64,000 bases of DNA from an uncultured bacterium. GTDB lineage: Bacteria; Zixibacteria; MSB-5A5; CAIYYT01. Below the pieces are notes generated by a model. It had not been told where the DNA came from. It worked only from the letters and a program-made list of their open reading frames with translations, and did not search any database. Below are positions 4,876 through 47,639 of this stretch, piece by piece; positions within the stretch are counted from its first letter, which is position 1, and each line of letters starts with the position of its first letter. Made by a program: the position numbers and the translations under genes. The stretch spans positions 2,434 to 66,433 of the forward strand of contig CAVPQS010000046.1 in NCBI GenBank assembly GCA_963707485.1. The letters are read 5' to 3'.

Positions 4876-4889
4876 GTCACAGTCCAGTA

Positions 4890-24124: not shown

Positions 24125-27100
24125 CTAGTCCCCGCTCACCGTCAGGGTAAATGGCGACCAGTAGTAAGGGTGCCGATGCCGCAGACGCGGTGAATTTATC
24201 ATTTCCAGTTTTGCGCGGCGCAGCGCTTCAGCATAACCAGATGACAGGTTTTGGTAGAAAGTCTTCATGAACGTGGCTGTGGTAAAGTCCTCGACTTCCC
24301 AGAGTGACACCAACAAATTATGGGCGCCGGCTTGCATGAAAGCCTTGACGAAGCCGTCCATTCCCTCGCTGACATCGAGTTTGCCGCCGCCGGATTCGCA
24401 AGACGACAAGACAACCAGGTCGGCGCTGAGTTTCAGTTCGTCGACTTCCGCCAGAGTCAGATAACTTTCGGCATTAGTCGCGGTGGTGTCATCCGAGAGC
24501 CAGATTTTAGATCGAGCCGGATCGCGATAATTAATCGTCGAGTGGGTCGCGGCGTGAAAGATCCGGTAGTCGGCGAGTCGAAGCCGCAGGAGTTCAGCTT
24601 TGGTGGCAGTTGACGCAGTGAGGATCGTGCAATTATTCGCTCCGAAGATGCCGCAAATCCAATCGACCTCGCGCGCACTGAACGGCAGTTGGCGTTGCTG
24701 CGAGTCTGAGCGAGGATCGGCCAACGCGAGAATGTGCCAGTTTTCGGTGCGCCGGGGCCCAAGTTCCTGTGGTGAAAACAGGAATAGCGAAGGCAAGGCA
24801 GCAACGGCGGCGTATTCGATCAGGTACTTGCCGTCAATCCGGAGCGCTTCAAAGGGCAAGATTGACAAGACGCCATCAGATGAGATAAGAATGCGGTCAA
24901 AGGAATCGGGGACCAGCAATGATTTTGGCAGGAGCAATTGACCGACTTGAGCTGCCGCTGTATATAGACTGTCGAGTAAGCTGTCGTTCTTGATTGACAA
25001 TTGTATCAGACGCATGAATTCGGAGATCGACGGGGTGAGAATCTCCCGTCCAGGCAAGAGCTCAGTCTTGATCTGAGTCTTGCAGATCAGAAGCGCGTAA
25101 CTTTCGTCGGGCGTGAGCAGGTACGAGATCAGGACCGTGCGACTATCGGGAAGTGCAGATTGGAGTCTCATTATTGCAATAGGCTCGGGCGTGTAGACAC
25201 GAACTGCAGCGGCGTTCGCGACACCAGCTTTGAGCCGCAGATCAGACAGTGTTTTCTCGAGGTCGGAAAGTTTCGCAACTTTCGCTTTCACCGATCGCGG
25301 AATTGAGTCATCAGCAAGTGAAGACTCAACTTGCTCAATTTCGCGTAAAAGTTGTCGCTCGCCGGTTTTATTAGGACGATGTTTGGACTCGGGACCTGTA
25401 GAACTGCGTTCGGCGATGATGTCGAGGAGTCCGCGCGACTTGGCTCTTTCGATATAAATCAGCAGCGAGTCATCATAGTCGCGGTTGTTTCCGCTTTGGC
25501 GAATGTGAAAGAGTGTCTTGACCATTTCTTCATACACCGATCGTGCCTGCGATTGAAAGCTTCCGCGCAGTTGTTCATCGGGAATGGACCCGCGTGATTT
25601 CTCTGATCGGGCTATGATTCGCGCAAGGTAACGATAGGCATCGTGCCACCGGCTCTCGTCGATCGCTATGTTCGAATGAATGATGTCGATTTTCTGCGAG
25701 TTGGAATAGGTGCGGCAGGAATCGAGGAGAATCTCTGCGCGCGCCAACAGGTCTTTAGACGCGGAGAGGTCTTTGTTTTCGCGGCTAAAATCGGACCGGA
25801 GACAAAGCAGGTCGATTCGGCGTTGCAGTGTCAACACGCCGGCCTGGAGTGTCGACGCGCTGTCGAGTAATTGAATTGCTTGCCTGTGATTGCCCAGAGC
25901 TTGCTCAATGCGAGCGCGGGCTATCAGCGAATTGCTCAGACCTCGCCTATCGTTGCTGAGTCCGGCAATTTCGGCCGATTTGGCGGCATAGTCGAGAGCG
26001 GCGGTTGTATCACCGACAGCGCAGTACAGTTCGGAAAGATTGCCCAGAGTTTCGCCGGATTGCAGGCGAAGATCGACTTGACGACGAATATCGAGGGCGC
26101 GTTGATAATAGTCGATTGCCGATTCGAGATCGCCGAGCTGCTGATGCAGAGAGCCGAGGTTATGGAAAATTGTCGCCAGAGCCACACGGTTACGCGTTTT
26201 GACTGCCAAGTCTTCCGCCTGCAGGTAGTGCTCAAGTGATTGCGTAAAGTAACCCAGTGAGGACTCAAGTGCGGCATAGTTTTGCAGGACTGCTAAGGCG
26301 AGTCGGTGGCTATTAGCCGCCATCGACGAGCGGACTGCTTCGTCATAGAGCGTTATCGCCGAATCAAGGTCTCCTTTTAGCTCGGCAAGAATCGCTCGGC
26401 AATAAGTTAATCGAACTGGGTCGCTTTTCGCAGGCAATGCAACGCCGAGGGCAGTAGCCTCATCGAACCATTCATTTAGCTGCGAGACCTGCACTTCGCG
26501 TGCAAAGGCTGGTATCATGGTAACGAGCGAAGTGTAAACTGAAGTCGAGTCCTGCAGCGCGCGCCGCAACGCGAGGGATTCTTCGGCAAATCGCCGGGCG
26601 TTGTGTTTGTCGCCGATTGAAAGGTATATGGACGCGATGTTGCTCAGACATTCGGCGACTCCGGCCCGGTCGCCAAGTTCGGCTTTAATCACCCGCGCCG
26701 AGTCAAAGTATGCGCCGGCTTTGATGAATTCCAACTTCTCGCTTAACAGCCTTCCCAAGAGATTGTAACTTCGTGAAAGGGCATCCAGATCACCGATGAG
26801 TCGACTTAGGTTCAAACTTTGATTCAGAATCTTGTCGGCCAATTCGGTGGTCATGCCTCTCGCGGCCGCGTGCTGCCACGAGTTTGCCGCCGAGCTTGAA
26901 TCACCGAATGCGAGAAACTCATTTCCCAGTTCGGCCATCTGGCTGCTATAAATTTCTACCGGTCCCTTGTTTCCGGCCAAGCCTTCAAGATTGGTAGAGA
27001 ATTGCAGTTTGAGCTGGCTGCGAAGCAGGAAGTAATGTTGTTTCCAAGTCTTGAACTTGCTGCATTGGCGGACATAAAAGTCGTCGCCGTATTCAGTTAG

Positions 27101-27379
27101 CACGAAATTTGCAGCTTCTTGTATTTGCTCAAAGAGGACCGTGTCGCCCGTGTCAAAGTAGTTTTCGAGTCCGCGCTGGAGATAGCGGTATAGTTCAAAG
27201 CGACTGCCAAAATCGAGCGAATCGGGCTCGGAGGACGCAAGAGCCGGAGTTGAATTCTGCGTTAGTAGAAATGTCAGGGTCAGCAGCAGGCACTTTAAGA
27301 GCATGATTGGCAATCTACGCCAGAACGGACGCATTGACAAGCGTGATACGGCGAGCCAGAAAATTGACAGCAATGCCAA
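24125..27379 (-). CDS. Secreted TPR-repeat protein with a C-terminal CHAT (caspase-like) domain, 1084 aa.
   Basis: It has a signal peptide (LLLTLTFLLTQNSTPALA) and many TPR-like repeats in the first ~600 aa. The CHAT hallmarks are HAATHS ... LVVLSSCESGGG ... LLVSLWEVEDFTTATFMKTFYQNL. Confidence 0.85.
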   Translation of the reverse strand: MALLSIFWLAVSRLSMRPFWRRLPIMLLKCLLLTLTFLLTQNSTPALASSEPDSLDFGSRFELYRYLQRGLENYFDTGDTVLFEQIQEAANFVLTEYGDDFYVRQCSKFKTWKQHYFLLRSQLKLQFSTNLEGLAGNKGPVEIYSSQMAELGNEFLAFGDSSSAANSWQHAAARGMTTELADKILNQSLNLSRLIGDLDALSRSYNLLGRLLSEKLEFIKAGAYFDSARVIKAELGDRAGVAECLSNIASIYLSIGDKHNARRFAEESLALRRALQDSTSVYTSLVTMIPAFAREVQVSQLNEWFDEATALGVALPAKSDPVRLTYCRAILAELKGDLDSAITLYDEAVRSSMAANSHRLALAVLQNYAALESSLGYFTQSLEHYLQAEDLAVKTRNRVALATIFHNLGSLHQQLGDLESAIDYYQRALDIRRQVDLRLQSGETLGNLSELYCAVGDTTAALDYAAKSAEIAGLSNDRRGLSNSLIARARIEQALGNHRQAIQLLDSASTLQAGVLTLQRRIDLLCLRSDFSRENKDLSASKDLLARAEILLDSCRTYSNSQKIDIIHSNIAIDESRWHDAYRYLARIIARSEKSRGSIPDEQLRGSFQSQARSVYEEMVKTLFHIRQSGNNRDYDDSLLIYIERAKSRGLLDIIAERSSTGPESKHRPNKTGERQLLREIEQVESSLADDSIPRSVKAKVAKLSDLEKTLSDLRLKAGVANAAAVRVYTPEPIAIMRLQSALPDSRTVLISYLLTPDESYALLICKTQIKTELLPGREILTPSISEFMRLIQLSIKNDSLLDSLYTAAAQVGQLLLPKSLLVPDSFDRILISSDGVLSILPFEALRIDGKYLIEYAAVAALPSLFLFSPQELGPRRTENWHILALADPRSDSQQRQLPFSAREVDWICGIFGANNCTILTASTATKAELLRLRLADYRIFHAATHSTINYRDPARSKIWLSDDTTATNAESYLTLAEVDELKLSADLVVLSSCESGGGKLDVSEGMDGFVKAFMQAGAHNLLVSLWEVEDFTTATFMKTFYQNLSSGYAEALRRAKLEMINSPRLRHRHPYYWSPFTLTVSGD

Positions 27380-27490
27380 TTTTCATCACAAAAGTCTTTA
27401 ATATTGGCAATCCTATCCATATATTTCCGATGTGGGGTTGACATAACTGTACTGAAGTAGAGTGGTTTATACACAACTGGGCAGGGATTT

Positions 27491-28051
27491 TTGATGGATC
27501 AATCAGGCGACGAGAAACTGGCAGGTAGTTACGCTTTAGTGTCCGTCCACGATCGCGAACAACGCGTTGGTGTGATGCAGACGATAGCGGAAATTGGACA
27601 AGTAATATCTTCAAGCGCAGTCGACGGCGATTACGACATCGTTCTCATGATAAAAGAGCTCCCGGGAGCTGGGATTGAGAAGTTTATCTCGAACAAGATT
27701 AGGACCTTAAAAGGTGTAAAGGCGGTTGAGATCTGTCGTGTCGAGTTAGCGGTTGGTGGTGTCGGGAGTTCTATCCAAGATGGGGATTCGGGAAAATCGG
27801 ATAGTTCAAGTGCGGAATGTTATCTATTTCTTGAGACCGACAAACGTCATTTTGAGGACATTTTCAGTTCTCTAAGTGTATTGAGTTCAGTGACTTCGTG
27901 CGAAGTTGCCAGCGGTCAATTCTCTTTAGTTTTGCGCCTGGAGGCCGGCAGTTTCGATACATTGGAGAAGATAATAAACGAAAAAATCCGCCCTCTGCCC
28001 GGTGTTCTTCGGGCAAAAGAAAGCCGTATCATAAAGCTTTCGGGCTTATAG
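27491..28051 (+). CDS. Stand-alone tandem Lrp/AsnC C-terminal (RAM) ligand-binding domain protein.
   Basis: It has two RAM-like modules (SYALVSVHDREQRVGVMQTIAEIGQVISSSAVDGDYDIVLMIKE ... and ECYLFLETDKRHFEDIFSSLSVLSSVTSCEVASGQFSLVLRLEA ...). No DNA-binding HTH is present. Confidence 0.5.
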   Translation: MMDQSGDEKLAGSYALVSVHDREQRVGVMQTIAEIGQVISSSAVDGDYDIVLMIKELPGAGIEKFISNKIRTLKGVKAVEICRVELAVGGVGSSIQDGDSGKSDSSSAECYLFLETDKRHFEDIFSSLSVLSSVTSCEVASGQFSLVLRLEAGSFDTLEKIINEKIRPLPGVLRAKESRIIKLSGL

Positions 28052-28241
28052 GCCGACTTAAATACAAGACAGAATCAATCAGAAATTTGGAGCTGTTGGC
28101 GAAAAAGCTGGAGAAACCGGATGATTTTTCTTGCGATTTTTTTCACAAAGTAGTAGCTTGGCTGGCATAACGCTTACCGACCGACACCGTGGTGTTTTAC
28201 CGGTGTGATCGTCTCAGCGCTCGTGTTACGGAGACAGGATT

Positions 28242-28715
28242 ATGGAGACGAAAGATCAGGAATTCAAGCCCTTCAATGTAGATGTTTGGAAGCACGACGG
28301 CCACGCCGGAGCGCTGATTCCACTTCTTCAATCCGCTCAGGACACCTACGGTTATGTCTCTGAACGCGCGATGGATTACATCAGTCATGTTACCGGAATA
28401 CCACCCGCCGAGATTTACGGCGTGGTGACGTTTTATGCCCAATTTCGGACTAAGCCACTTGGTGAAAAAATTATCAAAGTCTGTAATGGCACCGCTTGTC
28501 ATGTCAACGGTGTAAAGGAAATCGCGAATACGCTGAAGGATGAGCTGGGGATAGACTACGAGGAGACGACCGAGGATGGAAAAGTCAGCATGGTATCGGT
28601 TGCGTGTCTTGGCTGTTGCTCTTTGGCGCCAGTAGTCATGGTGAGCAACGAGACTTTTGGGCGCTTAACTCCGCAAAAGACGCGGAAGCTTGTGCGCGAC
28701 TTGAGACGGAAATAG
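28242..28715 (+). CDS. NuoE/HoxE/HndA-like [2Fe-2S] thioredoxin-fold subunit (24-kDa-subunit-like).
   Basis: It carries the cysteine quartet of the NuoE family (C-x4-C ... C-x3-C: VCNGTACH ... VACLGCCSLAP). A GGAGA SD precedes the ATG. Confidence 0.85.
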   Translation: METKDQEFKPFNVDVWKHDGHAGALIPLLQSAQDTYGYVSERAMDYISHVTGIPPAEIYGVVTFYAQFRTKPLGEKIIKVCNGTACHVNGVKEIANTLKDELGIDYEETTEDGKVSMVSVACLGCCSLAPVVMVSNETFGRLTPQKTRKLVRDLRRK

Positions 28716-28726
28716 GACCGGCGAAA

Positions 28727-30490
28727 ATGGCAATCAAGACGGTAATGGTTGGTATGGCTACCTGTGGAATCTCCGCCGGCGGCGAAAAAGTATACGAAGC
28801 GTTCCAGAGAGAGCTTCAGGACGGCGCCGATTTCGTTCTCCGCGAAACCGGATGCGTCGGCATGTGCTATCGTGAAGTCCTGGTATCGATCTCCAATGGC
28901 GACGGAGTCAATTATCTCTACGGCGAAGTTACGGCGGATCGCGTCAAGAGAATTGTCAGTGAACACATTCAGGGCGACGCGCCGATTGACGAATGGTTGG
29001 TGTCTGGAGTTGGGCGCGAGGTCGGTTTTTTTGACAAACAAGTGCGAATTGTACTGCGCAACTGCGGCGTAATCGACCCCAGTTCTTTGGAAGAATACAT
29101 TCAGAGCGGCGGCTACCAGGCAATAAGTAAGGTCCTGAAAGAGTTGTCGCCGGAACAAGTAATTAAAGAAGTCCAGATCTCGGGATTACGAGGGCGCGGC
29201 GGCGGTGGATTTCCAACCGGGAAAAAATGGGAGTTGGCGAGAGCCAGCGTCGGCGACAAGAAATATATCATATGCAATGCTGACGAAGGCGATCCGGGCG
29301 CGTTCATGGATCGTTCGGTTCTTGAGGGTGATCCGCACTCGGTTCTCGAAGGAATGATGATCGGCGGATACGCCATCGGCGCCGACGAGGCATACATATA
29401 TTGCCGCGCAGAGTATCCGAAAGCCGTTGCAAGATTGCGGATGGCGATTGCACAAGCCAGGAAGCAGGGGCTGCTCGGCAAAGATATACTTGGCAGCAAG
29501 TTTAGTTTCGATATCAAGGTAAAGGAAGGCGCTGGAGCCTTTGTCTGCGGTGAAGAGACGGCGCTGATTGCTTCGATCGAGGGCCGGCGCGGAATGCCGC
29601 GATTTCGTCCGCCCTTCCCCGCTCAAAAAGGACTGTGGGGCAAACCGACGAGCATTAACAATGTCGAGACATTTGCCAACATCCCGTGGATCATACTCAA
29701 TGGCGGCGCGGCTTACGCAGCTTACGGCACCGACGACAGCAAAGGCACAAAGGTATTCGCGATGGCCGGCAAGGTCAAGCGCACCGGTCTGGTTGAAGTG
29801 CCGATGGGCATCAGCATTAACGACATCATCTATAAAGTCTGCGGCGGCATCGTCGACGACAAGAAGTTCAAGGCCGTGCAAATGGGCGGGCCCTCCGGCG
29901 GATGCATTCCGGCCTCGCTCGGCGAAACCCTGATCGATTACCAGCAAATCAACAAGACGGGCGCGATTATGGGTTCCGGCGGAATGGTCGTGATGGACGA
30001 AACTACCTGCATGGTGGACGTGGCGAAGTTCTTCCTGACGTTTACGCAAGCGGAGTCGTGCGGCAAATGCACGTTCTGCCGAATCGGCACGAAGCGGATG
30101 CTCGAAATACTCGAGAGGATCACCGAGGGCAAGGGTCGCGAAGAAGATCTGGCAACACTCGACCAACTTGGCGAGCAGATCAAGATCGCCTCACTATGCG
30201 GTCTCGGGCAGACGGCGCCGAACCCGGTGCTTTCGACGCTCCGTTATTTCCGCGACGAATATGAGGCGCACATCCTGCGGAAGAAGTGTCCGGCGCACGT
30301 GTGCGCGCCGCTTTTGACTTTCACGATCGACCAAGAAAAATGCAACGGCTGTATGCTTTGTCCACGCTCCTGCCCGTCAAACGCCATACTCGGTGAAAAG
30401 AAAATGCCGCACAGAATATTGCAGGATCTGTGCACTCAGTGTGGCAAGTGCTTCACAGTATGCAACCAAGACGCGGTAATCAAGGACTGA
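28727..30490 (+). CDS. NuoF/HoxF/HndC-like flavoprotein subunit with NAD(H)- and FMN-binding sites and [4Fe-4S] clusters, plus a C-terminal 2x[4Fe-4S] ferredoxin domain.
   Basis: It has the FMN/NADH glycine-rich motifs (GRGGGGFPTGKKW; ICNADEGDPGAFMDR) and a [4Fe-4S] motif (ESCGKCTFCR). A C-terminal ferredoxin is present (CNGCMLCPRSCP ... CTQCGKCFTVC). The start at 28727 overlaps the NuoE-like stop. Confidence 0.85.
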   Translation: MAIKTVMVGMATCGISAGGEKVYEAFQRELQDGADFVLRETGCVGMCYREVLVSISNGDGVNYLYGEVTADRVKRIVSEHIQGDAPIDEWLVSGVGREVGFFDKQVRIVLRNCGVIDPSSLEEYIQSGGYQAISKVLKELSPEQVIKEVQISGLRGRGGGGFPTGKKWELARASVGDKKYIICNADEGDPGAFMDRSVLEGDPHSVLEGMMIGGYAIGADEAYIYCRAEYPKAVARLRMAIAQARKQGLLGKDILGSKFSFDIKVKEGAGAFVCGEETALIASIEGRRGMPRFRPPFPAQKGLWGKPTSINNVETFANIPWIILNGGAAYAAYGTDDSKGTKVFAMAGKVKRTGLVEVPMGISINDIIYKVCGGIVDDKKFKAVQMGGPSGGCIPASLGETLIDYQQINKTGAIMGSGGMVVMDETTCMVDVAKFFLTFTQAESCGKCTFCRIGTKRMLEILERITEGKGREEDLATLDQLGEQIKIASLCGLGQTAPNPVLSTLRYFRDEYEAHILRKKCPAHVCAPLLTFTIDQEKCNGCMLCPRSCPSNAILGEKKMPHRILQDLCTQCGKCFTVCNQDAVIKD

Positions 30491-30498
30491 GGCGATTC

Positions 30499-33400
30499 AT
30501 GATAACGATTACAATCAATGGAAATAAGGTCACCGCAGATCCGAACAAGACCATTCTGGAGACTGTCCATGAGCAGAAGCTCGATTCAATTCCCACGCTG
30601 TGTTATGACAAGAAGCTGGAACCATTCGGTTCGTGCTTTCTTTGTGTTGTCGAAGTGGCTGGAATGAACAAGCTGGTTCCGTCGTGCGCGACGAAGCCGT
30701 GGGACGGCATGGTGGTGCAGACGAAATCGCCGAAGGTCGTTGACGCGCGCAGGACTTGTCTCGAACTGCTGGTGTCAAACCACTATGCGGACTGTTTCGG
30801 TGCGTGCCGGCTCAACTGCCCGGCGGATGTTGATATCCAGGGCTATCTCTCCCTCACCTATTTGGGCAAGTATCATGAAGCCGTTCAGCTCATCAAGGAG
30901 AAGAATCCATTCCCATCAGTTTGCGGGCGCGTTTGTACGCGCAAGTGCGAGCTATCATGCCGCCGGAAAATGATCGACGATGCGGTTGGAATCGACTATT
31001 TGAAAAGATTCTCCGCCGACAAGGACCTCGAGGACATGTGGACGCCGCATCCGAAACCGCGCAACGGCAAAAAAGTTGCGATTATAGGCGGCGGCCCGGC
31101 AGGACTGACCTGCGCATATTATTTGACGCTCGAAGGCTATGAACCGACTGTCTTCGAAGCATTGCCCGAACTGGGTGGAATGCTGCGGTATGGAATTCCG
31201 GAGTACCGATTGCCTAAGGCGATTCTCGATAAAGAAATCAAGTGGATAACTGATCTCGGTGTCGAGGTCCACACCAACACCAAACTTGGCCGCGACATTA
31301 CACTCGACGGCTTGTTTGATCAGGGCTTCAAGTCTGTATTCGTCGGTCTCGGGGCGCAGCTCGCAAAGAGTATGGGTATCGCTAACGAGCAGGTTAAGAA
31401 TATTCTCGGTGGCGTTGATTTCCTTCGCGATGTAACGATGATCAACGCGCCAAAGTTCTCCGGTCGGGTGGTCGTAGTTGGCGGCGGCAATACTGCTATC
31501 GACGCGGCACGGACATCATTGCGACTGGGCGCTTCAGAAGTGGTGCTTCTGTACAGACGGACGCGCAAAGAGATGCCCGCCAACGAGCTTGAGATCGTGG
31601 CGGCGGAAGAAGAAGGAATCAATTTCAAGTATCTGGCGGCGCCAACAAAGATTAACTCAAAAGACGGTGTGCTTCAATCGATGGAGTGCATCGAGATGGA
31701 ATTGGGTGAACCGGACGCCTCGGGGAGGCGACGCCCAGTCGAGAAGAAGAATTCCAATTTCACTCTCGAATGCGATTTTGTCATCTCGGCGATTGGACAA
31801 GAAGCGGATTTGACCGGCGTCGAAAATGGCAACGCGGGCGAGACTGATATCGAACTGAGCAAGTGGCATACAATCATTGCGGCTGAAGGTTCATTTAACA
31901 CCAATCGCGCCGGCGTGTTCGCGGGTGGAGATGTTGTTACCGGACCGGCAGATGCCATTGACGCGGTTGCGGCAGGACGGATGGCGGCCTTTGCGATTCA
32001 ACGCTACATCGAGACCGGCCACTACGAGCGGCTCAAACCACTTTTTGCCAGCCGTAAGGACAATCTCAAGGAATTCACCAGCGAAGACTTCAGCGACCCA
32101 GTATCCAGCCAGAGAACGCATATCTCGGAGTTGCCGGTTGAAGAACGCATACACTCGTTTAAGGAAGTTGAACTCGCATTGACCGAAGAACAGGCCAAGT
32201 TCGAAGCTTGCCGCTGCATGGAGTGCGGCTGCCAGGTCGCGCTGGAATGCCGATTGCAGGACTACTGCGCGGAATATGGCGCCGACCAGAAACGTTTCGT
32301 CGGCGAGTTCAACCGATATAAGGTTGACACCAGACACCCCTTCATCACGCTGGATTCGAACAAGTGCATTAACTGCGGCCGCTGTGTGCGAACCTGCGCG
32401 GAGATTCTTGATGTCTCGGCACTGGGGTTTGTGAATCGCGGCTTCCGAACGATGGTGAAGCCCGCGATGAACAAGGCGCTTGCCGATACGAATTGCGTAT
32501 CGTGCGGCAATTGCGTCGATGCGTGCCCGACCGGCGCTATCGTGAACAAGTTGCCGTTCGGACGATCGGGGCCATGGTTGATGAATCGCATAAAGAATGT
32601 CTGCAACTTCTGCTCGATCGGCTGCAATGTAGAGATCAAGGCTAAGACTGCGGATTTGTTTTATGTGTCCGGTTCGTTCGAAGGCGAGCCGAATTTCGGC
32701 GAGCTTTGCGTTCGCGGCCGCTACGGCTATCAGCAACTCTTGGGAAATGAGCGGATGCGGAAACCACTTATCCGCAAAGGTGCGGATCTCGTGCCCGCGA
32801 CTTGGGAACAAGCCTGGGAACGAATCGAGCAAGGAATCAAGGATCTGAAGGTGGAATACGGCGGCGGCGCGCTTATGGTTGCGGCCTCGCCGAAGCTGAC
32901 TAATGAAGAACTGTACCTTGCAGGTAAATTGGCGCGCGTAACGCTCGAGACAAATGCAATCGGCAGTTTCCAGCGATTGGCAACCGATGCAGACTATCAC
33001 AGCCTCGACAACATGCTCGGAGCGACGACTTCGAGTTGTGGAACCAAGGAGCTTGAGGCTGCGGATATAATTCTTCTGGTAAACTGCGATCCGTTTACGG
33101 AGAACCCGGTTTTGGGTTGGCGGCTGAAGCGGATGCTCAAGAAGGGGAAGCAAGCGATTGTCATCAATTCTTCCGACATCGGCATAAACCGTTATGCTAC
33201 TCAATGGCTTGACCCGCGGCGCGGCTCTTCGACCTTATTGCTCAACGGCATAATGCTCGAACTAATGAAAAATGGCGGCGGGAATCTGGGTTATTTGGAG
33301 ACACGCACGGAAGGCTTCGAGCGATTCAAGCGGAGCCTGCTGGCACTTGATATTGAGGATGTGGAAGCAGTCACCGGTGTGCGTTCGGAGAAGATCTCGG

Positions 33401-34260
33401 AGTGTGCAAGGCTTTTGAGCGATAAAGACCGCAAAGTAGTTGCGATATACAATCTGGACAGCCGCCGCGACCGCTCACCAAACGACCTGAAGGCGCTGAC
33501 AGCGCTGATGCTTCTAACCGGCAAGATTGGCGTAGAAGGAAGCGGAATGATCCTCTTAACCAATCAAGCGAATGCGCGCGGAATGCAGATTGCGGGATTC
33601 GACCAGGCAATGTTACCGGGCGAGTCGCTGAATACACCGGATGCGCTCGCCAAGTTGTCGAAGGTTTGGAATCACGAACTGAGGCAGCTCAAGGGCAGCA
33701 CTACGGCTGATTTCCGGCAGGACTTTGAGGGTGGGAAATTCAAGGGCGGAATTGTGATAGGCGAAAATCCTGCCATTGATCCTGAGTGGGCAAAGAGAGT
33801 CGAGAAGCTGGAATTTCTCGTTGTGGCCGACATGTTCATGACGGAGACGGCAAAGCTTGCCGATGTTGTTTTGCCGTTGAATAGCTACGTAGAGGACGAG
33901 GGCACGATGACTAACTGGGAGGGGCTGCGCCAGTCGATCAAGCCGCTTGGCAAACCTCTAACAGGGCACAGCAATATCGACGTCATCGCGCGCATTATGC
34001 AGTCAGCCGACGGCGGTGTGCACGGTGTGACGTACTCCCACGAATTCCTTGGGAAAGAGATGAGTCAGTTAATCCCGGCGCGAGAACAGACCGTTGATAA
34101 CATGAAACGGTTCGCTACCAACTTTTCGACTCATGACGGCAAGGCCCACTTTGAAGTCTACCCGACGCAAATTAAGGCGACCGAGGTCAAGTGTCCGAAT
34201 GTTTTGGCGCTTGATGAAAGAACGGACGCAAAATTGGCACAGGTATTTGGACAGAAATAA
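30499..34260 (+). CDS. Large fusion oxidoreductase. It joins an N-terminal [2Fe-2S] ferredoxin (NuoG N-terminus-like), a GltD/NfnB-like FAD/NAD(P)H domain with Fe-S motifs, [4Fe-4S] ferredoxins, and a molybdopterin-oxidoreductase (FdhA/NuoG-like) domain.
   Basis: It has a [2Fe-2S] region (CYDKKLEPFGSCFLCVV). The GltD-like part is CRLNCPADVDIQGY followed by the dinucleotide folds VAIIGGGPAGLTCAYYL and VVVVGGGNTAIDAAR. Two 4Fe-4S ferredoxin motifs follow (CINCGRCVRTC, CVSCGNCVDACP). A Mo-bisPGD-type N-terminal cluster (CNFCSIGC ... GELCVRGRYG) resembles FdhF, and the protein is about 1254 aa. The region aligned to the FdhF Sec/Cys-His active site reads ...RLATDADYHS..., so it appears to lack the catalytic Cys/Sec-His pair. 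Confidence 0.75.
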   Translation: MITITINGNKVTADPNKTILETVHEQKLDSIPTLCYDKKLEPFGSCFLCVVEVAGMNKLVPSCATKPWDGMVVQTKSPKVVDARRTCLELLVSNHYADCFGACRLNCPADVDIQGYLSLTYLGKYHEAVQLIKEKNPFPSVCGRVCTRKCELSCRRKMIDDAVGIDYLKRFSADKDLEDMWTPHPKPRNGKKVAIIGGGPAGLTCAYYLTLEGYEPTVFEALPELGGMLRYGIPEYRLPKAILDKEIKWITDLGVEVHTNTKLGRDITLDGLFDQGFKSVFVGLGAQLAKSMGIANEQVKNILGGVDFLRDVTMINAPKFSGRVVVVGGGNTAIDAARTSLRLGASEVVLLYRRTRKEMPANELEIVAAEEEGINFKYLAAPTKINSKDGVLQSMECIEMELGEPDASGRRRPVEKKNSNFTLECDFVISAIGQEADLTGVENGNAGETDIELSKWHTIIAAEGSFNTNRAGVFAGGDVVTGPADAIDAVAAGRMAAFAIQRYIETGHYERLKPLFASRKDNLKEFTSEDFSDPVSSQRTHISELPVEERIHSFKEVELALTEEQAKFEACRCMECGCQVALECRLQDYCAEYGADQKRFVGEFNRYKVDTRHPFITLDSNKCINCGRCVRTCAEILDVSALGFVNRGFRTMVKPAMNKALADTNCVSCGNCVDACPTGAIVNKLPFGRSGPWLMNRIKNVCNFCSIGCNVEIKAKTADLFYVSGSFEGEPNFGELCVRGRYGYQQLLGNERMRKPLIRKGADLVPATWEQAWERIEQGIKDLKVEYGGGALMVAASPKLTNEELYLAGKLARVTLETNAIGSFQRLATDADYHSLDNMLGATTSSCGTKELEAADIILLVNCDPFTENPVLGWRLKRMLKKGKQAIVINSSDIGINRYATQWLDPRRGSSTLLLNGIMLELMKNGGGNLGYLETRTEGFERFKRSLLALDIEDVEAVTGVRSEKISECARLLSDKDRKVVAIYNLDSRRDRSPNDLKALTALMLLTGKIGVEGSGMILLTNQANARGMQIAGFDQAMLPGESLNTPDALAKLSKVWNHELRQLKGSTTADFRQDFEGGKFKGGIVIGENPAIDPEWAKRVEKLEFLVVADMFMTETAKLADVVLPLNSYVEDEGTMTNWEGLRQSIKPLGKPLTGHSNIDVIARIMQSADGGVHGVTYSHEFLGKEMSQLIPAREQTVDNMKRFATNFSTHDGKAHFEVYPTQIKATEVKCPNVLALDERTDAKLAQVFGQK

Positions 34261-34274
34261 ACAACTGCGGCAGA

Positions 34275-34300
34275 CCGGACCCTGACATATCAGAGTCCGG
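34275..34300. terminator. Hairpin between convergent genes (CCGGAC-N14-GTCCGG, with an inner CTGA/TCAG pair).
   Basis: An inverted repeat sits at 34275-34300, between the stop of the fusion oxidoreductase and the stop of the gpx gene. There is no strong U-tract. Confidence 0.25.
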
Positions 34301-34319
34301 CTGAGTATCGCTTTGGGGA

Positions 34320-34946
34320 CTAAGACTTCTTTTCGACTTTATTAGCTTTAAGCAAATCCTCAATTTTCCCGGTGATTTCAGCATCGGTTGGTTCGACCTT
34401 CGACGACCAACGGGCGATGAGATTGCCGTTTTGGTCCACAAGGAACTTGCTGAAGTTCCACTTGATTTCGCCGGGAATGTTCGAATCGATAGTGAAGTAT
34501 TTGAACAAGGGGTGGATGTCATCACCTTTGACGCTGACTTTGGACATCATCGGAAAAGTGACATTGAATTTTGACGTGCAAAATTCTTTGATTTCCTTGT
34601 CGCTGCCGGGTTCCTGCCCGCCGAAGTTGTTTGCCGGAAATCCGACGACGGCGAATCCCTGGTCTTTGTACTTTCGGTAGATTGATTCCAGGCCCGCGTA
34701 CTGCGGCGTGTATCCGCATTCGCTGGCGACATTGACAATTAACAGGACCTTCCCGGTGAACGCGCTCAGGTCGGTCGCAGAGCCATCAATGGTGTTGAAG
34801 GGAATCTTCTTAGAGTCAGTAGCGGTTGGCTGCGTCATTGTTGTCTCCGTTTCTGCATCATTCTTGACCTCGGCGACTGGAGTTCCGGCGAACGCCGCTG
34901 AGGCGAAAAACGATGCTGTCAAACTCAAAATGATGAACTTTCTCAC
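34320..34946 (-). CDS. gpx: Glutathione peroxidase family protein (Cys-type), with a signal peptide.
   Basis: It has the GPx motifs LIVNVASECGYT (peroxidatic Cys, not Sec) and GFPANNFGGQEPG. A signal peptide (MRKFIILSLTASFFASAAFA) is present. It uses a GTG start with a GGAG SD. Confidence 0.85.
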   Translation of the reverse strand: MRKFIILSLTASFFASAAFAGTPVAEVKNDAETETTMTQPTATDSKKIPFNTIDGSATDLSAFTGKVLLIVNVASECGYTPQYAGLESIYRKYKDQGFAVVGFPANNFGGQEPGSDKEIKEFCTSKFNVTFPMMSKVSVKGDDIHPLFKYFTIDSNIPGEIKWNFSKFLVDQNGNLIARWSSKVEPTDAEITGKIEDLLKANKVEKKS

Positions 34947-35089
34947 AATTGCACTCCTCGTGTTTTTTCCTACCTATTTATACGACTGCGGCCCGCCTGA
35001 TGATGGCGAGCCGTCGATTTATTAGGTGATTGACAAAGTGGCGATAATCGAGCCATTTTTGCCGCAACTGACAGAATTAGAGTTGTTAC

Positions 35090-35569
35090 ATGGCTGCAAA
35101 GAGCAAGAAACACGATTGGACGCAGTTCAAGCTGCGGGTATTCATCAATGCCAAACCCGGGAAAGTCTACAAAGCGTGGACAGACGATAAAGTAGTGTCG
35201 AAGTGGTTTACCGAGAAAACCGTCATCGAACCGCGAAAAGGTGGAAGGCTGTACCTCGAGTGGCTAGCGGGAGACAAGCTTGACACAAAAGTGAAGCAAG
35301 CGCACAAGAACAAGAATTTGGTGCTTCCATTCGTTAAGGACGGACTCGAAGTTGCCGTCACCGTTAAGAAAGACGACAAGGGTACGATCTGCGAGCTAAA
35401 GCAATACAATATGAAGACCGATCCGGCGTCAAAATGGTCGATTCATAAAGGCTGCGTCCAAGGCTGGACGTTCTTTCTTGCCAATCTCAAAGCCCACCAT
35501 GAGCATAGAATCGATTTGCGCAGTCACGATGTCAAGCGCAGCCACAAGGAGGTCTACGTCAGCAGTTAA
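35090..35569 (+). CDS. SRPBCC / AHSA1 (activator of Hsp90 ATPase homologue)-like domain protein.
   Basis: It has the typical AHSA1-like pattern (VFINAKPGKVYKAWTDDKVVSKWF ... ICELKQYNM) and is 159 aa. Confidence 0.65.
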   Translation: MAAKSKKHDWTQFKLRVFINAKPGKVYKAWTDDKVVSKWFTEKTVIEPRKGGRLYLEWLAGDKLDTKVKQAHKNKNLVLPFVKDGLEVAVTVKKDDKGTICELKQYNMKTDPASKWSIHKGCVQGWTFFLANLKAHHEHRIDLRSHDVKRSHKEVYVSS

Positions 35570-36796: not shown

Positions 36797-39391
36797 CTAC
36801 TCCGGCGCGCCAACAGTGGCGAGGACGTAGTTTTTCGTATCGAGATATTTCTGCGCAACGCGTTTGATATCGGCCGACGTAACCGCTTTCATTGCGCTGA
36901 TCAGGTCATCCTCGACATCATACTTCCCTACTAAGAACTGATTTACAGCCATGTAATAGGCTTGGTTGATGCGCGACAGCCGGGCCGTTAATTGCGAACC
37001 CCAGAGCGAATTTACCGAGCGCTCGAGCTCTTCTGCAGAAACGTCGACTGTGCGCATGGAGTCGATCACTTGCAAGATGCCGTTCTTGGCGGCGGAATAG
37101 TTTTCGACGCCGGTGCCCATCGCGGCAGAGAACCAACCGAAGTCCTTGTCAAATCCCACGCCGGCGCCGACGCGATAAGCCAGTCCGCGTTGTTCGCGCA
37201 GGACTTTGCCGAGTCGAGTAGACAGGATATCGACTGCGACGCGAAGCGCGACGGCATCGGGATCACCGGCGCCACAAACAGCGTTGCCGATGTACATGTA
37301 CGCCTGCTTCTTCTCCATCGGGATATTCTCTTTGGTCTCTCCGGTGATTCGCACAGGAGCGATAGTGGGAGCAACAATAGTCTCAACGCGCGGCATATCA
37401 CCGAAGGCTGCAGTTAGTTTTGCGAGCATTTGCTGCGGGGGAACATCCGTGCAAACTGCGAGGATGAGGTTGTTCGGGGCATAATACTGATTGTAATGCG
37501 CGCGTAAATCTTCGGCGGTGATTGCGCCAACGGAACGCATGGTGCCAGTCTCGGGGCTGGTGAAACGGGTGTCTTTGAAGAGCAGACCATAATAGACATT
37601 CTTCGCTTGATCGGAAGTCGAGCCCGATTGCATGCCGAGGACGCTCATGACTTCGGAGCGAACCTGTTCGACTTCGCTGTCGGGGAAAGTGGCATTTTTG
37701 ACAAGCTCAGCAAGCAGATCGATCCCCTGATCAGTGAAATCGGAAATTGTCTCAAATTTGAGAAACGAGAATTGTCGCGAAGTATAACGATCGTCATACG
37801 GTATGTAGGGGTTGTCGTTAGTTGTGAGATTTGCACCGATAGCCGCCAATGCGCGCGACATCTGCTCATTGGTGTAGTTCTTGCTGCCGTGAGTGAGCAT
37901 GCGGTTGACGAAATCAGTGATGCCTTCCTTGCCGACTGGCTCTGAAGCGGCGCGGTTTTTTCCAAGGACCATGAAAGCCTGGACCTGGGAATAGGGATTT
38001 GATTTGATGATGACCTCAAGTCCGTTGGGGAGAATCTCGTGCAAATACTCGCTGGTCATCTCGGTTGCAGAAGTTGATTTTGATTCCGCAATTGGCGTCA
38101 CCACGGTCGCTTGATAATTGTAGACGCTGAAATATTTGGCGGCGGCGCGTTTGACATCGGACGGCTTGACCTTCTCCAAGTTCGTGGTCATGTTGTCAAT
38201 GAAGTCATAACCCGTTGCGACCATCAAAGGGGCGACCTGGAATCCGTAGTAATGGAGTTTTTCTTTGAGGTAGACTTCGCTGGTCTTCGCAGAGGTAACA
38301 ACCGACTTAACATCGGCTGCGGTCGGCTCCCAATCAGCAATTGTCTGCTCCATCGTGCGGTTGAGCAGGTCTATGACTTGCTGGACGTTTTTCACCGAGT
38401 CGGTCTTGATGGAGATGTCGTAGGTGCTGAAATCCTTCTGCGTGTTGATCGACGCCGACACCGACTGGGTCAGACTTCCGTCCGCACCGGACAGATTATT
38501 CAGCAAAGGCGAAACACCTTGAGTATTCAGGAGCTCATTGAGAACATAAAAAGCAAAGTAATCCGGATCAGACCAGAGCGGCGCCTTTGATGTGAAACTC
38601 AGGTAGCAGCCAGCGCCTTCCATTTCGCGCGTGACGATATTCTTGGCATTCGGAATTGTCACTTTAAACTCAGGTACTGGCGGAATTGCGCGCGCTGGAG
38701 CGGCGCCAAAGAACTGCTTGTATTTCTTGACCATGTCGGCGGTTTTGAAATCGCCGATTACCAATGCGATCATATTGTTGGGTGCATAGTAGGTTTGATA
38801 GTAACTCAGAAGCTCTTCGCGCGAGATCGTGTTGATCAAGTTTTCATATCCGAGCACCGGTCGCGCATAAGGGGTTCCGGCATAGACCACTGATTGATGG
38901 AAATCATCAACGAGATCATCGATGCGGTCATGAGTTTGGCGGATTTCCTCGTTGACAACTTTACGCTCTTTGGGAAACTGTTCGGCGGGAAGAATCGAAT
39001 TGAACAGTTGATCCGACTGAACATCCAAGCCATAGTCGATGTAATCAGTCGGCATGAGTACGAGATAAGCGGTGAGGTCTTTGCGCGTGAAGGCATTGAT
39101 GTACCCGCCGTGACGCTCGATGAGATCATCGAGATCAGACTGCGATTTGGTTTTGGTGCCGTCGAACAATAGGTGTTCGAGAAAATGTGTGGCGCCATTG
39201 TTAAACTGATTTTCGTAGCGTGCTCCGGCATTGACGAACACGATCGAGGTGATCATCGGGGAGGAGTGATTCTCAACAAAGATGGCCTCAAGACCATTAT
39301 CGAATGTAACTTTTGTCGAAGGCAAGCCGGCAGACGCGAGCGATGCCAAGGAAAGCACGAGTAATGCAGCGATCAATAAACGAACATTCAT
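36797..39391 (-). CDS. Tandem M16-family zinc peptidase (two insulinase-like halves in one polypeptide), secreted.
   Basis: The inverzincin motif HFLEHLLFDG (HxxEH) is followed downstream by NAFTRKDLTAY. At about 865 aa, the protein holds two M16 units. It has a signal peptide (MNVRLLIAALLVLSLASLASA) from ATG 39391. Confidence 0.85.
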   Translation of the reverse strand: MNVRLLIAALLVLSLASLASAGLPSTKVTFDNGLEAIFVENHSSPMITSIVFVNAGARYENQFNNGATHFLEHLLFDGTKTKSQSDLDDLIERHGGYINAFTRKDLTAYLVLMPTDYIDYGLDVQSDQLFNSILPAEQFPKERKVVNEEIRQTHDRIDDLVDDFHQSVVYAGTPYARPVLGYENLINTISREELLSYYQTYYAPNNMIALVIGDFKTADMVKKYKQFFGAAPARAIPPVPEFKVTIPNAKNIVTREMEGAGCYLSFTSKAPLWSDPDYFAFYVLNELLNTQGVSPLLNNLSGADGSLTQSVSASINTQKDFSTYDISIKTDSVKNVQQVIDLLNRTMEQTIADWEPTAADVKSVVTSAKTSEVYLKEKLHYYGFQVAPLMVATGYDFIDNMTTNLEKVKPSDVKRAAAKYFSVYNYQATVVTPIAESKSTSATEMTSEYLHEILPNGLEVIIKSNPYSQVQAFMVLGKNRAASEPVGKEGITDFVNRMLTHGSKNYTNEQMSRALAAIGANLTTNDNPYIPYDDRYTSRQFSFLKFETISDFTDQGIDLLAELVKNATFPDSEVEQVRSEVMSVLGMQSGSTSDQAKNVYYGLLFKDTRFTSPETGTMRSVGAITAEDLRAHYNQYYAPNNLILAVCTDVPPQQMLAKLTAAFGDMPRVETIVAPTIAPVRITGETKENIPMEKKQAYMYIGNAVCGAGDPDAVALRVAVDILSTRLGKVLREQRGLAYRVGAGVGFDKDFGWFSAAMGTGVENYSAAKNGILQVIDSMRTVDVSAEELERSVNSLWGSQLTARLSRINQAYYMAVNQFLVGKYDVEDDLISAMKAVTSADIKRVAQKYLDTKNYVLATVGAPE

Positions 39392-39554
39392 CTCTTCCTC
39401 CGTGATGGCAATTCTTACTGATGTCCAATCAAGCACGGCAGCGCATGCAAGTCAAGAATATTGATGAAGGCGTCGCGGTTGTCACCGCCAAGTGACAAAT
39501 AGCAAGGCGCGCGACACGTGCCGCGCGCCTGATTCGATAGTGGTCGGAATGGCT

Positions 39555-42912: not shown

Positions 42913-43986
42913 TCACGCGGGCTTTAAGGACGGATCGGTCTTGAAGTAACGGCGCTGGAAGTACAGTGAGACGTTCACGAGCGCTATTAGAGTTGGTACC
43001 TCCACCAAGGGTCCGATGACGGCGGCAAACGCAACGCCGGAATTTACACCGAACACCGCCACGGCAACCGCGATTGCGAGTTCGAAGTTGTTGCTTGCCG
43101 CGGTGAACGACAATGTTGCGGTTTTCGAATAGTCTGCCCCGACGCGTTTGCCCATGTAGAAGCTGACAAGGAACATCACGACGAAATAGATCAGCAGTGG
43201 AATGGCGATGCGGACCACGTCGAGCGGAATCTGCACGATCATATTTCCCTTGAGGCTGAACATGACGAGGATCGTAAAGAGCAGCGCGATTAGTGTTATC
43301 GGACTAATCTTGGGAATGAAGACGGCATGATACCAATCCCGGCCCTTGGCTTTGATCAGAACAAATCGAGTCAACATGCCGGCAAAAAACGGAATCCCGA
43401 GGTAGACGAGAACGCTCTTGGCAATCTCCGACATTGAGACTTCGACGACGCTGCCCTCCAGTCCGAACCATCCGGGCAGGATCGTGATGAAGATCCAGGC
43501 ATAGAGACTGTAAAAAAGTATTTGGAAGATTGAATTGAATGCGACGAGTCCGGCGGCATAGTCAGTGTCTCCCGAGGCGAGTTCGTTCCAAACGATGACC
43601 ATCGCGATACAGCGCGCCAGGCCGATCATAATCAAGCCGGTCATATACTCCGGATAGCCGGAGAGAAACGCGATCGCGAGCAGGAACATCAGAGTCGGAC
43701 CAATGACCCAGTTTTGAACAAGCGATAACCCGAGCACGCGCCAATTGCGAAAAACCTTACCGAGTTCCTCATAGCGAACTTTGGCGAGCGGCGGATACAT
43801 CATCAGGATCAGGCCAATAGCGATGGGGATATTGGTCGTGCCGGATTGGAAGCGATTGATCACGCTTTCGATTTCCGGATAAAAGTGGCCGAAAGCTACT
43901 CCGAGAGCCATTGCAATGAATATCCACAGCGTCAAAAAGCGGTCGACGAAACCGAGATGCTTCGTTGGATTGCGTTTATCCGACAA
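42913..43986 (-). CDS. acr3: ACR3-family arsenite efflux transporter.
   Basis: The N-terminus [23 protein letters not shown] is typical of ACR3, and the protein has 10 TM helices. Confidence 0.85.
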
Positions 43987-44404
43987 GCAGAGCCTCCGGC
44001 AGAGTCAGCACAAAGTCGCGAATTTCGTCGCGGACGCGGCGATAGTGAACAAGAGCCTCGGCCTCGGACTTGGCGTTCGCCGCAAGCAAAGGCGGATCAG
44101 CGAAGCTGCGATGAACAATTTTGGCATTGCCGGGGAAGATTGGACAAGACTCGCGGGCGTTGTCGCAGACGGTTACGACATAATCGAATCGAATGTGCAA
44201 CACATCGACGACATTTTTCGAGCGGTGTTGGGAGATGTCGACATCGGCCTCGGCCATAACTTTGACGGCAAGCGGGTTGAGACCTTGCGCCGTAGCGCCG
44301 GCGGAATAGGCTTCAATCACGCCGGACTTGAGATAACGAGCCCAGCCCTCAGCCATCTGCGAGCGGCACGAATTGCCGGTGCACAAGAACAAGACCTTAA
44401 TCAT
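43976..44404 (-). CDS. arsC: Arsenate reductase, LMW-PTP/thioredoxin-coupled type.
   Basis: It has the [14 protein letters not shown]-loop. The downstream Cys pair is [12 protein letters not shown]. Confidence 0.85.
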
Positions 44405-44775
44405 GAGCGTTGTCCGCAACAGATAGTCTCAAGGTCCATGGAGAGAATCTCGCGCAATTTGCGGTCGTCTGCACGGATTTGCTCGGATCGCTGCAGGGCG
44501 TCCATGATCCAACGAATCGCTTGGCCAGTGACGGATGATTCCGGCGCAACAATAAGGCGGTAGTATACCCAACGGCCCTCTTTGCGCGTATCGACGAGGC
44601 CGGCCTGCTTGAGGATCGCCATGTGCTTGGAGACAGTCGAAGGCGCCAAGCCAAGCAGTTCGATCAACTGGCAAACGCACAGTTCCTGCTTGCGCAGAGA
44701 CATGAGGGCGCGAGCGCGGCTCTGATCCGACAGGGCTTGGGAGATTTCCGTTACGATGTTCAGTGCATCCGTCAT
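44401..44775 (-). CDS. arsR: ArsR/SmtB-family metalloregulator.
   Basis: It has an ELCVCQL metal(loid)-binding motif inside a winged HTH. Confidence 0.85.
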   Translation of the reverse strand: MTDALNIVTEISQALSDQSRARALMSLRKQELCVCQLIELLGLAPSTVSKHMAILKQAGLVDTRKEGRWVYYRLIVAPESSVTGQAIRWIMDALQRSEQIRADDRKLREILSMDLETICCGQRS

Positions 44776-44826
44776 ACTTCGTTATATGGCGAAATATAGG
44801 AATAGATTCGACATTGTCAAATATTT

Positions 44827-45989: not shown

Positions 45990-46015
45990 CTTTGTCCTTC
46001 CTGACGAACAATTAA

Positions 46016-46249: not shown

Positions 46250-46258
46250 TGTTTTCTC

Positions 46259-47566: not shown

Positions 47567-47597
47567 GATAGTCTCCTAATTGCATCCACATTGTATG

Positions 47598-47622
47598 TCA
47601 TTTGGTCAAATCGCCAAATGTT
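47598..47622. promoter_or_regulatory. Inverted repeat (CATTTGG-N9-CCAAATG, with an inner CATTTG-GT-CAAATG) in the arsR-arsP intergenic region. Candidate ArsR operator.
   Basis: The inverted repeat is seen directly in the sequence. It sits between the arsR stop (47640) and the arsP start (47566). Confidence 0.25.
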
Positions 47623-47639
47623 TTCGCAAAAAAACACGA

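Follow-up and report, generated by a model that had tools for sequence, protein, structure and literature searches.

A Zixibacteria gene trio predicted to encode an Stn/NfnABC-type bifurcating transhydrogenase with a long, degenerate formate dehydrogenase-like domain

Three co-directional genes, here called g1, g2 and g3, lie on the + strand of a contig from an uncultured Zixibacteria bacterium (GenBank assembly GCA_963707485.1, contig CAVPQS010000046.1, positions 2,434 to 66,433; this whole stretch of 64,000 nucleotides is referred to as the window) and very probably encode, by analogy with solved enzymes, an Stn/NfnABC-type electron-bifurcating transhydrogenase (Nfn-Bfu, Type 1 Bfu). Gene order, domain order and cofactor ligands are those of this enzyme type, and the catalytic residues of formate dehydrogenase (FDH) have been lost from the large subunit. 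The reference enzymes are the StnABC transhydrogenase of Sporomusa ovata (PDB 8OH5/8OH9; PMC10482914) and NfnABC of Caldicellulosiruptor saccharolyticus (Csac; PDB 9BOV/9BP5; PMC11829005), both purified, assayed and solved by cryo-electron microscopy as NADPH:ferredoxin/NAD+ bifurcating oxidoreductases with an inactive Fdh-like domain (PMC10482914, PMC11829005), along with an archaeal Nfn-Bfu enzyme (PDB 9N5U; PMC12018979). An earlier note on this DNA, made by reading the sequence alone, had proposed a NuoE/NuoF/GltD-NuoG complex of this kind, and the structural matches, identities and conserved cofactor ligands presented below agree with it.

The three open reading frames (ORFs) were found at 28242-34260, where that note had placed them:

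28242..28715, + strand: g1, 157 aa, NuoE-like thioredoxin-fold [2Fe-2S] protein, StnA/NfnC (BfuC) orthologue
28727..30490, + strand: g2, 587 aa, NuoF-like, StnB/NfnB (BfuB) orthologue
30499..34260 (stop codon included), + strand: g3, 1253 aa, NADPH-oxidising large subunit, StnC/NfnA (BfuA) orthologue

The same order (nuoE-like, nuoF-like, gltD/nuoG-like) is found in StnABC, and the NuoE-NuoF-large subunit succession is kept in related loci wherever upstream DNA is available, considering g3 homologues down to 37% identity. Of the gene layout first described, the co-directional trio stands but the overlapping stops and starts do not, since these appear only with the longest-ORF starts (GTG 28604 for g2 and GTG 30430 for g3). 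Alignments to StnB/NfnB and StnC/NfnA begin at ATG 28727 and ATG 30499, which are the starts favoured here, and with them the genes abut, separated by spacers of 11 nt (g1-g2) and 8 nt (g2-g3). A GltD domain set inside a NuoG-type fusion was confirmed for the third gene by its Pfam domain order, with a length of 1253 aa. A promoter and terminator scan of 27300-35100 returned nothing interpretable: six promoter-like sites against 5.5 expected in shuffled sequence, using a sigma-70 consensus that is probably not applicable to the host phylum.

The small subunit g1 matches Pfam 2Fe-2S_thioredx (PF01257, E 1.7e-50) and retains all of the cluster cysteines (C81, C86, C122 and C126), that is, a [2Fe-2S] in a thioredoxin-like domain as BfuC/StnA requires. 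Its best PDB matches are archaeal NfnC (9n5u_C, 6.9e-49), followed by Csac NfnC (9bov_C, 3.5e-46) and StnA (8oh5_A, 3.9e-41), with identities of 48% to StnA and 52% to Csac NfnC. In the known enzymes, the StnA/NfnC [2Fe-2S] is mobile and acts as the gating cluster at the bifurcation site.

Pfam domains of g2 are Complex1_51K, SLBB, NADH_4Fe-4S and a C-terminal 4Fe-4S dicluster (2x[4Fe-4S]), the latter corresponding to the ferredoxin-docking domain; an N-terminal thioredoxin (Trx)-like domain, a NuoF-type flavin mononucleotide (FMN)/NAD(H) site, an N3-type [4Fe-4S] and a His/Cys (Zn) motif (HILRKKCPAHVC) complete the protein. Bifurcating BfuB subunits are distinguished from non-bifurcating NuoF by three features, a Trx-like domain at the N-terminus, a 2x[4Fe-4S] domain at the C-terminus and a His/Cys (Zn, 'B2') site (PMC11829005), and all of these BfuB-specific extras occur in g2. 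StnB (8oh5_B, 5.5e-266, 887 bits) and Csac NfnB (9bov_B, 2.8e-257, 858 bits) are its best PDB matches, above the HydB proteins of bifurcating hydrogenases (752-634 bits). For identities, StnB, StnC and the Csac proteins NfnA and NfnB were used as PDB sequences reassembled from the rows of HMMER alignments, with lengths that fit the stated residue ranges; on this basis g2 is 65% identical to StnB and 63% to Csac NfnB, and collinear with StnB from end to end (StnB 3-581, 579 residues). Conservation extends to 23 of the 24 StnB cysteines, including C13, C43, C47, C521, C526 and the eight C-terminal ones, the single non-kept cysteine being missing from Csac NfnB too, and to the FMN/NAD-site residues E184 and D186.

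The large subunit g3 has Pfam matches to Fer2_4 (1-77), Fer4_20 (102-178), Pyr_redox_2 (191-493), Fer4_Nqo3 (614-681), Molybdop_Fe4S4 (696-747) and Molybdopterin (752-1153), from which the following parts are delimited:

30499..30798, + strand: N-terminal NuoG/HydA-type [2Fe-2S] ferredoxin domain, g3 1-100 (Fer2_4, E 3e-17)
30799..32193, + strand: GltD/NfnL-like insert with two [4Fe-4S], flavin adenine dinucleotide (FAD) and NADPH site, g3 101-565 (Fer4_20, Pyr_redox_2)
32209..32541, + strand: CxCxxCxCx5C motif and His-preceded 2x[4Fe-4S] ferredoxin domain, g3 571-681 (Fer4_Nqo3, E 4e-12)
32584..34257, + strand: Fdh-like domain, consisting of the Molybdop_Fe4S4 cluster and domains I-III of the Mo/W-bis(pyranopterin guanine dinucleotide) (bisPGD) fold, g3 696-1253 (Pfam, Molybdopterin 126 bits)

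The succession of [2Fe-2S], GltD, Fe-S wire and Fdh-like parts is that of StnC, a protein of 1172 aa in which residues 1-101 form a hydrogenase-like N-terminal [2Fe-2S] part, 102-565 adopt a GltD fold and 683-1172 make up an FdhF-like domain (Kumar et al. 2023, PMC10482914), and of Csac NfnA, described as an N-terminal domain followed by NfnL-like and Fdh/NuoG-like domains (Li et al. 2025, PMC11829005). Csac NfnA is also the best PDB match of g3 (9bov_A, 1.5e-256), ahead of StnC (8oh5_C, 1.4e-230) and archaeal NfnA (9n5u_A, 4.2e-197). Identities are 40% to StnC and 41% to Csac NfnA, on rebuilt sequences that miss the last ~86 (StnC) or ~31 (Csac NfnA) residues and short internal gaps. The earlier note had regarded the NuoG/FdhA-like extension as additional to the Stn design and the domain combination as uncharacterised; this is ruled out by the search of PDB sequences and by the publications on Stn and Nfn-Bfu, as StnC (1172 aa) and Csac NfnA (1178 aa) share it. 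Enzyme type and domain architecture are thus already known, and what differs here is the taxon, a longer Fdh-like domain and a swapped Fe-S cysteine.

Pairwise alignment shows the cysteines of each of the seven cluster sites of StnC to be present in g3, namely those of the N-terminal [2Fe-2S], two GltD-type [4Fe-4S], the CxCxxCxCx5C cluster, two ferredoxin-type [4Fe-4S] and the Molybdop_Fe4S4 cluster. StnC C36, C47, C50 and C64 correspond to g3 C35, C46, C49 and C63, the GltD-type cluster cysteines of g3 are C99, C103 and C107 together with C142, C146, C150 and C154, and StnC cysteines 562, 565, 567, 573, 613, 616, 619, 623, 656, 659, 662 and 666 are all kept. Segment 571-681 provides the NuoG-type wire leading to the B subunit, along with one cluster that lies off the path. 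The GltD-like insert has an intact FAD motif (GGGPAG at 197-202) and an intact NADPH motif (GGGNTA at 328-333, then YRRT), as had been read by eye, and both StnC residues tested by mutagenesis are conserved (K170 as g3 K169, R239 as g3 R237). The Lys ligand on the FAD-proximal cluster is shared with Csac NfnABC as well.

The Fdh-like domain is where the annotation of this gene family goes wrong, and two segments of it decide the matter:

32974..33003, + strand: degenerate ex-active-site loop RLATDADYHS, g3 826-835 (HMMER and MAFFT alignments)
33553..33582, + strand: LLTNQANARG, opposite FdhF PVRGQNNVQG, with Thr1021 at the FdhF Arg333 position

In a MAFFT alignment of Escherichia coli FdhF (sequence taken from NC_000913) with 115 homologues of 46-100% identity, Sec140 (selenocysteine) of FdhF falls on Ala828, His141 on Thr829 and Arg333 on Thr1021. 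An independent HMMER search with g3 690-1253 sets RLATDAD opposite CARLxHSAT/RL-Sec-H-SAT of F420-FDH, CTRLCHASS of MeFDH1 and CSRYCQSP of YjgC, and LLTNQANARG opposite PLRGQNNVQG of solved FDHs. Both routes place RLATDADYHS at the Sec/Cys140-His141 segment with the catalytic pair gone, just as the by-eye alignment had it, and the check it called for, on loss of the catalytic Cys/Sec and Arg, gives Ala828 and Thr1021. The degeneration extends over the whole clade: across the 115 homologues the Sec column reads V/L/A/T/I/S and the His column N/S/T/G, a Cys/Sec-His pair occurs in none, and the Arg333 column is S/T in 96 and R in 16. The proximal [4Fe-4S] cysteines C702, C705, C709 and C737 (FdhF C8, C11, C15 and C42) are invariant in 114 of 115, a cluster kept as in StnC that alone is no mark of an FDH. 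The pterin-capping domain IV (Molydop_binding, PF01568) has no match in g3 by Pfam: the protein is collinear with FdhF from residue 1 to ~575 and then ends. An AlphaFold2 model of g3 570-1253 has a predicted local distance difference test score (pLDDT) of ~90 over 693-1253, and Foldseek top matches of this part have similar scores for MeFDH1, Csac NfnA, ForCE, FdhF (TMq 0.71, root-mean-square deviation 3.8 Å) and StnC; residues 570-692 were not interpreted, their pLDDT being < 50, which is expected when Fe-S domains are modelled with neither cofactors nor partners.

Lost residues and missing domain IV are shared with StnC, whose FdhF-like domain is described as inactive, with two clusters off the electron path yet needed for tetramer assembly (PMC10482914). 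In Csac NfnA, likewise, the pterin site is incomplete, the map has no density for pterin and the A4/A5 branch is a dead end (Li et al. 2025, PMC11829005), and the incomplete site and the Fe-S branch have their counterparts in g3. The Fdh-like domain of g3 is therefore most readily seen, from its sequence, as a putative scaffold or tetramerisation domain that has no catalytic role and bears an Fe-S branch ending blindly, in line with the NuoG-like scaffold proposed beforehand.

Activity, bifurcation, oligomeric state (a tetramer of heterotrimers in enzymes of this type) and physiological direction are read here by analogy, with the mechanism taken by homology from the enzymes solved for S. ovata and C. 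saccharolyticus. On this model, NADPH would bind the GltD-like domain of g3 and reduce its FAD, from which single electrons would travel along the g3 wire of two GltD-type [4Fe-4S], one NuoG-type [4Fe-4S], the N-terminal [2Fe-2S] and the CxCxxCxCx5C cluster. The wire would end at an FMN-centred bifurcation site made up of the g2 FMN and N3-type [4Fe-4S] and the g1 [2Fe-2S], where two NADPH-derived electron pairs would be split: one pair would pass to NAD+ at FMN as hydride and the other to ferredoxin via the mobile g1 [2Fe-2S] domain and the two C-terminal g2 [4Fe-4S]. The reaction is presumed reversible, NADH plus reduced ferredoxin reducing 2 NADP+. The Fdh-like domain would be a dead-end Fe-S side branch, probably serving folding, assembly and oligomerisation as shown for StnC, and in a non-acetogenic FCB-group host the complex may balance the NADPH, NADH and ferredoxin pools.

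Several observations weigh against this assignment. With the characterised large subunits, g3 shares only ~40% identity, and for g1-g2-g3, as for the other long-form (~1245 aa) members, the transhydrogenase function is argued from homology. No Wood-Ljungdahl, pyruvate:ferredoxin oxidoreductase, hydrogenase or ferredoxin genes were found in the 64-kb window to anchor a physiological role. StnC C114, whose exchange for alanine (C114A) cut StnC activity by half, is replaced by Ile113 in g3 (30835-30837). Taken alone, the Fdh-like domain is closer to real FDHs (YjgC 1e-59, MeFDH1 4e-54, FdhF 5e-46) than to Csac NfnA (1e-42) or StnC (2e-38), and it is less degenerate than in the characterised enzymes.

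Regarding the cysteine, the C114 equivalent is missing from archaeal NfnA too, so it is not defining for Stn/NfnABC. In the g3 clade, Cys142 (30922-30924, within SVCGRVC) is nearly invariant at a position where StnC and Csac NfnA have Ile and archaeal NfnA has Leu. Thermotoga maritima NfnB (AVCGRVC) shares the Ile plus Cys arrangement of g3, whereas StnC and Csac NfnA show the opposite pattern, with Cys where g3 has Ile113 and Ile where g3 has Cys142. Because of this opposite Ile113/Cys142 pattern, the fourth ligand of one GltD-type [4Fe-4S] in g3 may come from another position than in the solved enzymes.

The better FDH scores, in turn, arise because StnC and Csac NfnA carry deletions that g3 lacks: 5 aa in the ex-active-site loop, ~16 aa in StnC around FdhF 195-215, ~10 aa and ~4 aa farther along, and ~40 aa at FdhF 345-385. 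Altogether g3 is 81 aa longer than StnC, with ~75 residues of Fdh-like domain lost in StnC and NfnA. Judged from these alignments, g3 is a long form of StnC/NfnA, a difference of degree and not of kind. That the long-form domain retains a pocket for a ligand or pterin fragment, a regulated 'electron overflow' function or a site for a fourth redox partner is quite unlikely; if true, it would define a functionally distinct subclass of Nfn-Bfu enzymes.

Among alternatives, the same complex might catalyse another reaction: NsoABC-like NADPH:sulfur/polysulfide reduction, SfrAB-like transfer from NADPH to Fe(III) or another acceptor, or non-bifurcating NAD(P)H:ferredoxin or NADH:NADP+ oxidoreduction. 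The closest homologue in archaea was initially reported to be an NADPH-dependent sulfur oxidoreductase and named Nso (PMC10482914, PMC7483475), the halves of StnC resemble Geobacter SfrA and SfrB (PMC7483475), the window is rich in multihaem cytochromes suggestive of metal or extracellular electron transfer, and bifurcation in long-form members is itself presumed by analogy. However, g2 has all the BfuB-specific extras, following the criteria of PMC11829005, SfrAB comes without NuoEF partners, and Nso-type enzymes have since been reinterpreted, the archaeal one having been shown to be a bifurcating Nfn (PMC9304861, PMC7483475), which leaves a different reaction unlikely.

A genuine NAD(P)+-linked Mo/W formate dehydrogenase with a NuoEF-like diaphorase module is very improbable for g1-g2-g3, even if it is what public names suggest. 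The C-terminal 560 residues of g3 are collinear with domains I-III of FdsABG from Rhodobacter capsulatus (6TG9), MeFDH1 (7VW6), ForCE/YjgC (8RQZ) and FdhF (1AA6), with an FDH-like fold and the proximal [4Fe-4S] in place, and the NCBIfam Fdh-alpha model TIGR01591 matches g3 at 3.6e-88. That match scores 296 against a cut-off of 666, though, and is limited to positions 2-475 of the 672 in the profile; Sec/Cys, His and Arg of the active site are all replaced, domain IV is absent and a GltD insert is present. Among characterised homologues, no pterin was observed (PMC11829005) and no formate activity was detected (PMC7483475): StnC itself had been annotated as a formate dehydrogenase, and purified Stn gave no formate:methyl viologen activity (Kremp et al. 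2020, PMC7483475). Locus L023 encodes a protein of the same architecture in which the FDH site is intact, and which served as a positive control; processed in the same way, it displays CARLCHAS, the catalytic Arg and PF01568 at 1e-31, hence the alignment method does detect an intact FDH site when there is one. With two alignment routes (HMMER and MAFFT) and the missing PF01568 in agreement, formate dehydrogenase was rejected, as the earlier note had also concluded.

Membership of respiratory complex I (NuoEFG) or identity as a glutamate synthase small subunit has a practically negligible chance and was discarded on missing partner genes and sub-cut-off scores: g1 is just above the cut-off of the NCBIfam NuoE equivalog NF005722 (148.8 vs 141), NuoF and NuoG models match and the top NCBIfam match of g3 is PRK12814 ('putative NADPH-dependent glutamate synthase small subunit'), but no other nuo genes and no gltB lie near the operon in the 64-kb window, the scores are below curated cut-offs (NuoF 497 < 559, NuoG 305 < 470, PRK12814 644 < 916), no NCBIfam model reaching its cut-off for g2 or g3, and neither the GltD insertion nor the extra g2 domains occur in complex I.

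Returning to the Stn/NfnABC-type assignment, differences from its reference enzymes also concern host and length. In contrast to StnABC, g1-g2-g3 belong to a non-acetogenic FCB-group metagenome-assembled genome (MAG) and no Wood-Ljungdahl genes adjoin the operon, and Csac NfnABC is from a thermophilic Firmicute and has a shortened Fdh-like domain. The same three-subunit design recurs in archaea, in the Nfn-Bfu enzyme from Thermococcus sibiricus (9N5U) and in NsoABC from T. litoralis, and the N-terminal 700 residues of g3 match archaeal NfnA at 2.4e-192; that protein, however, is ~290 aa shorter (963 aa), with a partial Fdh-like domain and without the cysteines of one off-path cluster, all of which are present in g3. 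Classical NfnAB/NfnSL (T. maritima 4YLF, Pyrococcus furiosus 5JCA) performs the same overall reaction as the one proposed here, and g3 101-507 match NfnB/NfnL at 1e-87 and 1e-83, with the four-Cys 'xVCGRVC' arrangement of T. maritima NfnB shared by g3. Nevertheless, no gene for the FNR-like partner NfnA/NfnS is found in or next to the g1-g2-g3 operon, bifurcation takes place at FAD in the classical enzyme and would involve the FMN/Fe-S site of the NuoEF-like module here, and the FAD-proximal cluster ligand is Glu in T. maritima NfnB and Lys169 in g3 (PMC10482914).

At the protein level, g3 has a 100% identical counterpart at NCBI, a MAG protein that carries the label Candidatus Zixiibacteriota, and the genomes that come next (67-87% identity) bear the labels uncultured Ignavibacteria or Zixibacteria. 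Long-form homologues of ~1242-1257 aa and 46-58% identity are found in Zixibacteria, Ignavibacteria/Bacteroidota, Acidobacteriota, Verrucomicrobia and Syntrophorhabdus. Stn/Nfn-Bfu enzymes were earlier reported in Firmicutes, Synergistetes, Proteobacteria, Bacteroidetes and Euryarchaeota (PMC9304861, PMC7483475), with putative StnC homologues of 898 to 1,241 aa tabulated by Kremp et al. 2020 (PMC7483475). A full-text literature search returned no paper tying Stn/Nfn-Bfu to Zixibacteria, the 2013 RBG-1 paper mentioning only classical NfnAB. The known range of these enzymes is modestly extended; understanding of the mechanism is left unchanged by g1-g2-g3.

The practical value lies in annotation. 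Public names of the homologues are misleading (P0010, P0011, P0017, P0023 and others): JGI calls many of them 'formate dehydrogenase major subunit', one NCBI record reads 'Formate dehydrogenase H' and most others 'molybdopterin-dependent oxidoreductase', in a clade that has lost the catalytic residues throughout. In public pipelines, g3 itself and hundreds of homologues are misnamed in this way, which would wrongly credit Zixibacteria, Ignavibacteria and related MAGs with formate oxidation or CO2 reduction; read as Stn/NfnABC-type, they would instead point to a bifurcating link between NADPH, NADH and ferredoxin in those MAGs.

The control protein is of interest on its own. Found in a Pseudomonadales MAG (CAYWUD010000008.1, 6001-10212, + strand), it has 1403 aa and a g3-like [2Fe-2S]-GltD-NuoG N-terminus, with 37% identity. 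No NuoE or NuoF homologues occur in the 6 kb upstream, and the sequence examined ends ~100 bases after the gene. Going by its residues, it appears to be an NADPH-linked FDH fusion capable of catalysis, and it is possible that it represents a living relative of the StnC ancestor. Together with the less-reduced Fdh-like domain of g3, it is useful for tracing the decay of a GltD-inserted FDH alpha subunit into the StnC/NfnA scaffold.

A split arrangement is found in a Dehalococcoidales MAG (L027, 1349-7572) and a Chloroflexia MAG (L028, 5992-12000). There, the NuoG/Fdh-like part is a gene of its own that lacks the GltD insert and reads Tyr-Asn or Tyr-Ser in place of the Sec-His pair; after it come NuoE-like, NuoF-like and GltD-like parts, the last two apparently sharing one 1030-aa frame in L027.

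Directly upstream of the operon, 27491-28051 (+ strand) encodes, from a TTG start, a 186-aa protein with two tandem AsnC/Lrp-type ligand-binding (RAM) domains. A reading as an AsnC/Lrp regulator was dropped, the protein having RAM domains only and no helix-turn-helix (HTH) detected at relaxed thresholds. The ORF is upstream of the operon in all close relatives (loci L002-L012, L017 and L021), its identity falling to ~38%. Further upstream and divergent, 24125-27379 (- strand) encodes a 1084-aa TPR and CHAT (caspase-like) protein that is syntenic in L002-L010, L012 and L017.

Elsewhere in the window, the regions 595-6596 and 55993-60656, both on the - strand, encode multihaem c-type cytochromes of very large size (1426 and 568 aa) as well as two multihaem-cytochrome/cytochrome-b561 fusions of 655 and 876 aa, which adjoin a TetR regulator (60669-61322); these cytochromes suggest a capacity for extracellular or periplasmic electron transfer. 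An arsenic-resistance-like cluster at 42913-47981 (- strand) contains an SBF/ACR3-like transporter, a low-molecular-weight phosphatase (ArsC-like), a DsbD_2 membrane protein, an ArsP_1 permease and an ArsR-type HTH protein. At 48077-51556 (- strand) lies a 1159-aa fused restriction-modification enzyme of Eco57I/MmeI type. Two large homologues of M16-family (insulinase-like) peptidases lie at 52305-55886 (+ strand) and 36797-39436 (- strand), the 1193-aa one having only a weak match, to the inactive M16 C-terminal domain.

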